Positions 38,906 through 44,852 of a DNA stretch of 64,000 nt are shown piece after piece. This DNA comes from Escherichia coli (GTDB lineage Bacteria; Pseudomonadota; Gammaproteobacteria; Enterobacterales; Enterobacteriaceae). Position 1 is the stretch's first letter. Each line of letters starts with the position of its first letter. The position numbers and the translations under genes were made by a program. The stretch lies in NCBI RefSeq assembly GCF_002854065.1, contig NZ_CP024147.1. One strand, 5' to 3'. Under the pieces are notes generated by a model, which saw nothing but the letters and a program-made list of their open reading frames with translations, ran no database searches and was not told where the DNA came from.

Positions 38906-39098
38906 TTTTAAATCCAACGACAGACGGCTGGCATTTAAGTATTGTGAAATATTATCAAATGTAATCATCATTGATTTACAAAAGATACATTTTGCCCCGA
39001 AAGGATTCATGTCAGAAACATCAAAAGATGATGTTCTATACTGGGAACCATGACAACACGGGCATCTAAAGTGAATATGGTTTGTAATATTGTCTACC

Positions 39099-39311
39099 TC
39101 AAAGCGCCACTACATGAACAGCGGCAGGACCTTTAGGTCCGTTCTCAATACCAAATTCAACTTCCTGATTCTCAGTTAATGTTTTGAAATCGTTGCTCTG
39201 AATTGCTGAGAAATGGACAAACACATCTTTGCTGCCATCTTTCGGCGTGATGAAACCAAAACCTTTTTCAGGGTTAAACCATTTCACTAAACCAGTCATT
39301 TTGTTAGACAT
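39099..39311 (-). CDS. cspI: CspA-family cold shock protein
   Basis: 70 aa, [23 protein letters not shown]... with RNP1/RNP2 motifs. Confidence 0.9.
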
Positions 39312-39673
39312 AATTATTACCTTTTGAAGAAATTAGCCCTTGGGCAGAATGGTCCGAAAAAAAATATCAGAGAGAAAAACCAACAAGGAAATCCCAAGAG
39401 GTACAAATAATAAAATTATAACAATGACTGCTTCAGATAAATTTGTAACAAACCAGAACACCATTAACGCATGATTAACCACCCATAGCAAGGATTACTT
39501 TTGTAAAGAAAAACACAGCAATGAAAGAATAGCTTTATTTATTAATAAAACGTGTCATTCTGATTAAGACCTTTTATCTTACCCTTAAGATTTCAGGAAT
39601 TTTGGCTCATGGAAGAGTCCTTTTTATTTAAATTTTACATTCCGCGATGTAAATGTTCCGATTTAATATTACC

Positions 39674-40698
<1,025 letters not shown>

Positions 40699-41230: not shown

Positions 41231-41449
41231 ATCCTCACCCCGATGTACACGGATGGTGCAATATGTTTGAAAAGATCGGAGTCTACGGGGTAGTTTTGAC
41301 AGCACACGCTGTTCTCAACGGCGCTAAAGAAACATACACATTAAAAATGTGAGTAATTATTTTGAAAGAAAGTCATATATAAAATAATAATACGAGAAAT
41401 GTTTTCATATTTAGTGTACTGTATACGGCCATTTATACAGGAAAAGCCT

Positions 41450-41620
41450 ATGTCAGAACGTAAAGACTCAAAATCACGCCGTAATTATCTCGTTAAATGT
41501 TCCTGCCCAAACTGCACCCAAGAGTCAGAACACAGTTTTTCAAGAGTACAAAAAGGTGCCCTTTTGATCTGCCCTCATTGCAACAAAGTATTCCAGACAA
41601 ATCTTAAAGCTGCAGCCTGA
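41450..41620 (+). CDS. 56-aa zinc-ribbon small protein (CPNC-x17-CPHC)
   Basis: ATG at 41450 with AGGAAAAG upstream; two CxxC pairs. Confidence 0.6.
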   Translation: MSERKDSKSRRNYLVKCSCPNCTQESEHSFSRVQKGALLICPHCNKVFQTNLKAAA

Positions 41621-41703: not shown

Positions 41704-41983
41704 AGATTGTGGTGCTTTTTGTGGGAGTCATCCACTTACGCACTTTGTTTTGCCATGCCAGCAGTTAGCTTCTGCTGTAAAACTATTCATGCCGCAAACC
41801 TGCACTTCACCACAATGGTTAGCATACTTTTCCTGATTAAGATTTTGCCAAATATGCTGGCCATTGTTTCATGTATTGGACCTCCTTAATTTTTATTAAA
41901 GAAATCCAATATTCACTACTCTGTCCGTATCTCTACTCAGGCATCAGCCTTCTTCGTTATCGTATACAGACGAGCGATGAATT

Positions 41984-42199
41984 TTAATCAGTAATGATGA
42001 CATTTGCTGCTGCAGGACCTTTAGCACCACTCTCTATAGAGAAGGTAACCTTTTGACCTTCAAATAAGGTTCGATAATTATCATTCTGAATCGCAGAAAA
42101 ATGCACAAACACATCTTTACTACCATCAACAGGAGAAATAAAGCCGAAACCTTTATCAGCGTTAAACCATTTTACTAAACCAGTCATTTTATTTGACAT
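41984..42199 (-). CDS. cspB: CspA-family cold shock protein
   Basis: 71 aa, [23 protein letters not shown]... Confidence 0.9.
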
Positions 42200-42490
42200 T
42201 CTACATTCCTTAACTTGAGCCTTTCGGCATAAATGGTTTGCATAACAGAAACGACTTCGTACTTAATTGGAGAGACTCAAAGAAGGAATAAGTGAATAAC
42301 ACCTGAAATGAGAACTGCTTTAGTAAACTACTTCGTATATCGTCTGTTCTTCAAACCGACGCAGTCATTAACTCATAGTTGAACATATGAAGCAATGTTT
42401 ATTTTAGACATCCAGCCACCTTCAACCCTATCAAAAAAGTAGTTTTCTCCAGGAACGTGTGTATGGTGCACCAGGTTATCAGTATTAAGG

Positions 42491-42724
42491 AGTTTTTCTG
42501 TCCCCTAAAATGACAGGAATTGTCAAAAACTTTGACTACAAAAGCAGCAAAGGTCTTATATCCCCATCCGATGGCGTATCGATGCCCAGCTTCAGGTTTC
42601 AGCTCTCAATCTTCGAGATGCAGAAGAAATTACCACAGGATTACGCGTGGAATTTTGCCGGATAAATGGTTCGCGTGGACCTTCAACTCCCAATGTTTAT
42701 CCTGGGATGAGATTCAATATCTCT
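42491..42724 (+). pseudogene. cspF: cspF-like cold-shock gene, apparently frameshifted
   Basis: Frame A (ATG 42491) encodes [22 protein letters not shown] then leaves the cold-shock-domain pattern; a second frame from ~42556 encodes ...[20 protein letters not shown] (domain C-terminus) and runs on without the expected stop. Confidence 0.5.
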
Positions 42725-42744
42725 ATTGCCCCATTTAAAGCACA

Positions 42745-42777
42745 AAAACCCGCTTATCAGCGGGTTTTCTACTTTTT
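42745..42777 (+). terminator. intrinsic terminator after the cspF-like gene
   Basis: AAACCCGC-TTATCA-GCGGGTTT followed by a T-rich run. Confidence 0.65.
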
Positions 42778-42874
42778 TCTAAACGTCGGATACACAAAGC
42801 CCATCGTTGAGAAAATCTTATCCATGTTTTTTGAAAAATGCAAACATCATGTCGCCATCTTCAGCAAAAATCAT

Positions 42875-44516
<1,642 letters not shown>

Positions 44517-44852
44517 GTTTTTCAACCTGAAGTGTCAGCGAGAGTAAAAAATTATGGTGACCATTTTACCGTTGACTCAATAAGGCAGATGTGGGACGCA
44601 GCGATAAAACGTGCCGGACTCCGCCATTGAAAATCATATCAGTCGAGACATACTTATGCCTGCTGGTCGCTGACAGCTGGTGCTAACCCGGCATTTATAG
44701 CAAACCAGATGGGCCATGCAGATGCGCAAATGGTATTTCAGGTATACGGAAAATGGATGTCTGAAAACAATAATGCACAGGTAGCTTTGTTAAATACACA
44801 GTTAAGCGAGTTTGCCCCAACCATGCCCCATAACGAAGCAATGAAAAATTAA
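44517..44852 (+). pseudogene. intQ: tyrosine integrase C-terminal remnant with an in-frame stop
   Basis: Frame reads ...WDAAIKRAGLRH-stop(TGA 44628-44630)-KSYQSRHTYACWSLTAGANPAFIANQMGHADAQMVFQVYGKWM...; begins at the IS right end, ends 38 bp before attR. Confidence 0.65.

Follow-up and report, generated by a model that had tools for sequence, protein, structure and literature searches.

The 64,000-nt stretch of Escherichia coli DNA analysed here (the window) carries a homologue of the cold-shock gene cspF whose two halves lie in different reading frames, which raises the question of whether the gene is dead, wrongly assembled, decoded by an unusual mechanism or kept for another role. Judged from sequence comparison, the locus is almost certainly a non-functional remnant (pseudogene) of cspF within a Qin-like lambdoid prophage. 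This pseudogene is real and fixed, an ordinary dead copy of an accessory gene that NCBI's annotation pipeline has already annotated, and its significance is small, as another instance of accessory-gene decay in a Qin-like prophage.

The position of the locus is that of cspF. In the window, the cspF homologue is flanked by an intact cspB and by the Q antiterminator gene, and the order of the genes, with the lysis genes (rzpQ, rrrQ, ydfR and essD) followed by ynfU, cspB, cspF and Q, is the same in K-12, in LF82-type genomes and in the phages Tritos and 2H10. A megablast search with positions 42440-42800 gave matches in 1622 of the 5426 complete E. coli genomes, every one of them under a feature named cspF, and the annotated neighbourhood is the Qin cryptic prophage. 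K-12 cspF (b1558) occupies the same position in Qin, divergent from cspB and convergent with the Q gene ydfT/quuQ. The two neighbouring paralogues in the window, cspB (41984-42199, minus strand, 71 aa, divergent from cspF) and cspI (39099-39311, minus strand, 70 aa), had been described as intact in an earlier reading made from the DNA letters alone (the sequence-only reading), and both are. Full-length matches to the cspA thermoregulator family (Rfam RF01766) cover cspB together with its cspA-type 5′ leader, which extends up to 42360 (41968-42360, minus strand, 158.8 bits), as well as cspI and its 5′ leader (39072-39457, minus strand, 113.1 bits). No such cspA-type leader was found upstream of cspF on the plus strand (no match to RF01766 at E <= 0.1), and an Rfam scan of the cspF strand at the locus found no RNA family. 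Between the holin gene and cspB lies a homologue of ynfU, a small Cys-rich ORF on the plus strand (41399-41620) that appears intact; ynfU encodes a putative zinc-binding protein with an annotated length of 56 aa.

The alignment of the window with K-12 cspF showed 89.4% nucleotide identity over 264 nt, with the Shine-Dalgarno region and the terminator in common. In K-12 the gene is intact: its 70 codons run from a TTG start to an LS-stop end, with ynfS behind it. In the window, a CTG replaces the TTG, one nucleotide is missing at codon 26, and 258 bp comprising the 3′ end and ynfS are deleted. A Shine-Dalgarno-like TAAGGAG, read from the sequence (42486-42492, plus strand; TAAGGAA in K-12), is separated by 5 nt from the CTG and by 17 nt from the in-frame ATG that follows. 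The CTG (42498) occupies the place of the K-12 TTG start, is common to intact alleles (ET450 and GCA_029855305.1) and is equivalent to the position at which the homologous feature begins in NCBI's annotation pipeline, while the ATG (42510) is codon 5. The frame from the CTG reads LSPK, then 22 CspF residues from the ATG and then 29 unrelated residues, before a premature TAA (42663-42665, plus strand); the product would have 55 aa if started at the CTG and 51 aa if started at the ATG.

Within this frame, the first CspF segment (42498-42574, plus strand, by alignment to K-12 cspF) comprises codons 1-25 and two bases of codon 26. Exactly one base is missing relative to the intact K-12 gene, the T that forms the third base of GGT (Gly26), so that GATGGTCGT has become GATGGCGT and the deletion site lies at 42574/42575 on the plus strand. 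The second segment (42575-42700, plus strand), in the -1 frame with respect to the first, comprises codons 27-68 (RIDAQ...PSTPNVY) and includes the 20-residue C-terminal motif of the CspF homology at 42641-42700; its frame has no stop until 43036. The sequence-only reading had recognised this arrangement, and the sequences it quoted do lie inside 42491-42780, but it set each internal position ~19 nt too low. The cold-shock-domain start that it read from an ATG at 42491 is present, but the ATG is at 42510, ~19 nt higher; the C-terminal motif does lie one frame over, in a segment that begins at 42575 and not at ~42556; and the single-nucleotide indel proposed near 42554-42557 is indeed one missing base, located at 42574/42575. 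It was right that the second frame has no stop where a ~70-aa protein should end, but its suggestion that the stop codon had been lost by a point change did not hold.

A point mutation of the stop was rejected on the alignment to K-12, which shows the 258-bp deletion (alignment columns 262-519; junction at 42699/42700 on the plus strand, with a placement uncertain by ~2 nt) that takes out the last two cspF codons and the stop (CTT TCA TGA) as well as the 29-codon ynfS. This small gene (29 aa, Pfam PF23697) lies downstream of the intact cspF alleles in K-12 and its relatives (L002, 3326-3415). An intrinsic-terminator-like hairpin, AAAACCCGCTTATCAGCGGGTTTT, followed by a T-tract (42745-42778, plus strand), stands between the convergent cspF and Q, is conserved in K-12 and is kept in the deletion allele. 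Because the displaced cspF frame has lost its stop, there is a spurious 129-codon ORF (42647-43036, plus strand) that crosses the terminator and runs antisense to the Q gene fragment (42875-43255, opposite strand). The sole start codon of the displaced frame is the GTG at 42647, 24 codons in, and no start reads all 42 CspF-like codons. Neither this ORF nor the 51-codon ORF at 42510-42665 should be called a gene in annotation.

Both the encoded and the conceptually repaired protein were compared with the CspF model NCBIfam NF012007, which has a profile length of 70 and a curated cut-off of 111 bits. The encoded ORF (51 aa from the ATG at 42510) reached 37.2 bits over profile positions 5-27 only, below the cut-off, whereas the repaired protein, which matched positions 1-68, passed it with 126.5 bits (E = 2.6e-37). 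It follows that the DNA is derived from cspF but has ceased to encode a CspF. The homology in two frames is not a product of chance. The 29-residue out-of-frame tail had no match to a known family in the NCBIfam search. The chromosomal paralogue of CspF is CspH (b0989), which belongs to the same divergent Csp clade; on the CspH model, the repaired window sequence scored 96.5 bits, under the cut-off of 141 bits. Judged by both its sequence and its gene neighbourhood, the window locus is cspF and not cspH. The proteins of this CspF-CspH clade contain few aromatic residues, and their function is not known (PMC6719143); CspF overexpression had little effect on two tested Csp target mRNAs, baxL-bax and gdx (PMC11648934), which together fit a dispensable gene.

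The gene was broken by two deletions. The missing T at codon 26 shifts the reading frame, so that a ribosome starting from the CTG or the ATG would make the first 26 (or 22) CspF residues followed by 29 unrelated ones and end at 42663-42665. The ~26 residues are only the start of a cold-shock domain of ~70 residues, and hence no folded CspF would be expected. The 258-bp deletion removed the stop of the displaced frame together with ynfS. As an accessory gene, cspF accompanies cspB in Qin-like lambdoid prophages, in the interval from the Q antiterminator gene to the lysis genes; we infer that it is dispensable and that the broken allele spreads passively with the prophage. The locus carries what is expected of a pseudogene, namely a lesion that disrupts the frame relative to the intact orthologues (the 1-nt deletion at 42574/42575, with the stop at 42663-42665) and further damage, with the 258-bp 3′ deletion in every copy and an extra nonsense codon in one of the eight sampled.

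We then looked at the intact relatives of this allele. The frame assignment of the sequence-only reading depended on intact alleles differing from the window at this place, and they do: in K-12, ET450, 097H6, GCA_029855305.1 and 2H10 alike, the extra T is present and the gene ends in LS-stop. Over codons 2-68, the repaired allele differs from K-12 at 10 codons with a change of amino acid and at 8 where the change is silent, a pattern that does not prove long neutral drift. The repaired window protein is 94% identical to the intact 70-aa CspF of GCA_029855305.1 (CP123276.1; WP-type P0001), and the two alleles share P3, N11, Y14, S17, A30, S59, T64 and the CTG start; the listed residues make up most of the substitutions by which the window differs from K-12. 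Unlike the window, GCA_029855305.1 has the T at codon 26, a K-12-type 3′ end with ynfS and a complete 70-aa CspF. As these substitutions are common to an intact allele, most of the divergence from K-12 predates the inactivation. Among the RefSeq complete genomes there was no intact copy of the window haplotype, and this one intact relative came from the protein database alone. The possibility that GCA_029855305.1 derives from K-12 and was patched locally was rejected: its Qin region differs from that of K-12 at 385 of 5213 positions, and its prophage is therefore a natural mosaic variant. The protein database also contains cspF products that were damaged independently, by frameshift or fusion (P0019, P0026 and P0033), which shows that cspF has been lost repeatedly.

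The broken allele is widespread. The exact 32-mer across the 1-nt deletion was found in 213 of the 5426 complete E. coli genomes (~4%), while none of the 5426 had the version of this haplotype that contains the T. The short 3′ form, with the 258-bp deletion, was present in 214 complete E. coli genomes among those matched by megablast; the near equality of the two counts indicates that the two lesions travel together, and these 214 genomes therefore lack ynfS at the cspF locus. In a sample of eight broken alleles, made up of the window and seven opened RefSeq genomes (including LF82, 2014C-4587, 100416 and A31), both lesions were present in every copy, and all seven RefSeq records bore the flag of NCBI's annotation pipeline for a pseudogene, "frameshifted; incomplete; missing C-terminus". 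The annotated cspF pseudogenes of LF82, 2014C-4587, 100416 and others have the two lesions at the same positions and are 98.1-99.7% identical to the window; the best match, strain 100416, differs from it by one base, at 42616, and none of the complete genomes of the collection is identical to the window over the cspF region. Over 12 kb around the locus, the best matches, in various E. coli strains, are 97.9-99.0% identical. The Z1323PEC0014 allele, alone among the eight, carries one more defect, a nonsense mutation of GGA to TGA within the CspF frame (equivalent of window 42638), which fits continued decay.

The broken allele is also carried by the 46-kb phage Tritos (99.2% identity), among intact Q, cspB and lysis genes, whereas in phage 2H10, a relative of Tritos, cspF is intact. 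In the deposited Tritos genome (OV696610.1; segment L012, 3001-3361), there is no feature between cspB and Q despite the cspF remnant. The loss of cspF in an otherwise complete-looking phage and in ~4% of the complete E. coli genomes gives mild support to the view that the gene is dispensable.

Copies of the broken allele in many unrelated strains show 98-99.7% conservation, and its ribosome-binding site, promoter region and terminator are intact, so that a transcript of the remnant and a peptide of 51-55 aa could still be made. The alternative that survives best builds on these signals, and we regard it as very improbable: the remnant would be expressed and would have taken up a new role in the late region of the prophage, either as a small protein of 51-55 aa (the CspF N-terminus plus a new 29-residue tail) or as a non-coding RNA of ~290 nt, with a candidate influence on cspB or Q. 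The Shine-Dalgarno, the in-frame ATG and the terminator are all kept, and the length of the frame-0 ORF is unchanged in eight of eight sampled alleles. However, these alleles are only a few bases apart, and given such a recent common ancestry the retention of the ORF is expected and is no signal of selection; in addition, three variable sites in the frame-0 ORF alter the out-of-frame tail (R/T, E/G and Q/H), which resembles no known family. If such a role were true, selection, and not hitch-hiking, would explain the ~4% frequency in E. coli and the presence of the allele in at least one complete phage genome.

Programmed -1 ribosomal frameshifting, which would carry translation from the first segment into the second and yield a CspF-like protein that is extended and functional, is almost certainly not at work here, even though the two halves are offset by -1 and more than 200 genomes have kept this layout. 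There is no slippery heptamer of the form X XXY YYZ at the junction, which reads GAT GGC GTA; the target frame stays open past the terminator as far as 43036, antisense to the Q gene; in Z1323PEC0014 the nonsense codon falls in this very frame; and the intact alleles need no frameshifting. No more credible is a sequencing or assembly error, in which cspF would be truly intact and one base would have been dropped: such errors typically consist of one missing base, but this one lies outside a homopolymer run (GATGG^CGT), the co-occurring 258-bp deletion cannot come from base calling, and the error is rejected because the exact lesion recurs, in an identical 32-mer, in phage Tritos and in 213 complete genomes that were each assembled independently, which makes it real and heritable and not an assembly artefact.

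Besides the cspF pseudogene, the same prophage shows other damage. The rzpQ-like (DUF2514) ORF at 39674-40045 on the minus strand encodes 123 aa, compared to 165 aa in K-12, and as the rzpQ homologue of strain 100416 is annotated as frameshifted, the rzpQ of the window looks like a second pseudogene. Of the Q antiterminator gene (ydfT/quuQ homologue; 42875-43255, minus strand), only the C-terminal 126 codons are left. Its 5′ part has been replaced by an IS3-family element (~43256-44510), with orfA at 43295-43642 and orfB extending to 44508, after which there are integrase-like fragments at 44505-44852. The same truncation of Q is annotated in strain 100416, with a transposase of the ISEc31 family. 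A full-length match to the Hfq-binding sRNA isrC (Rfam RF01387; 43327-43449, plus strand, 150 bits, E = 1.3e-37) falls within the orfA region of the window's IS3-family element.
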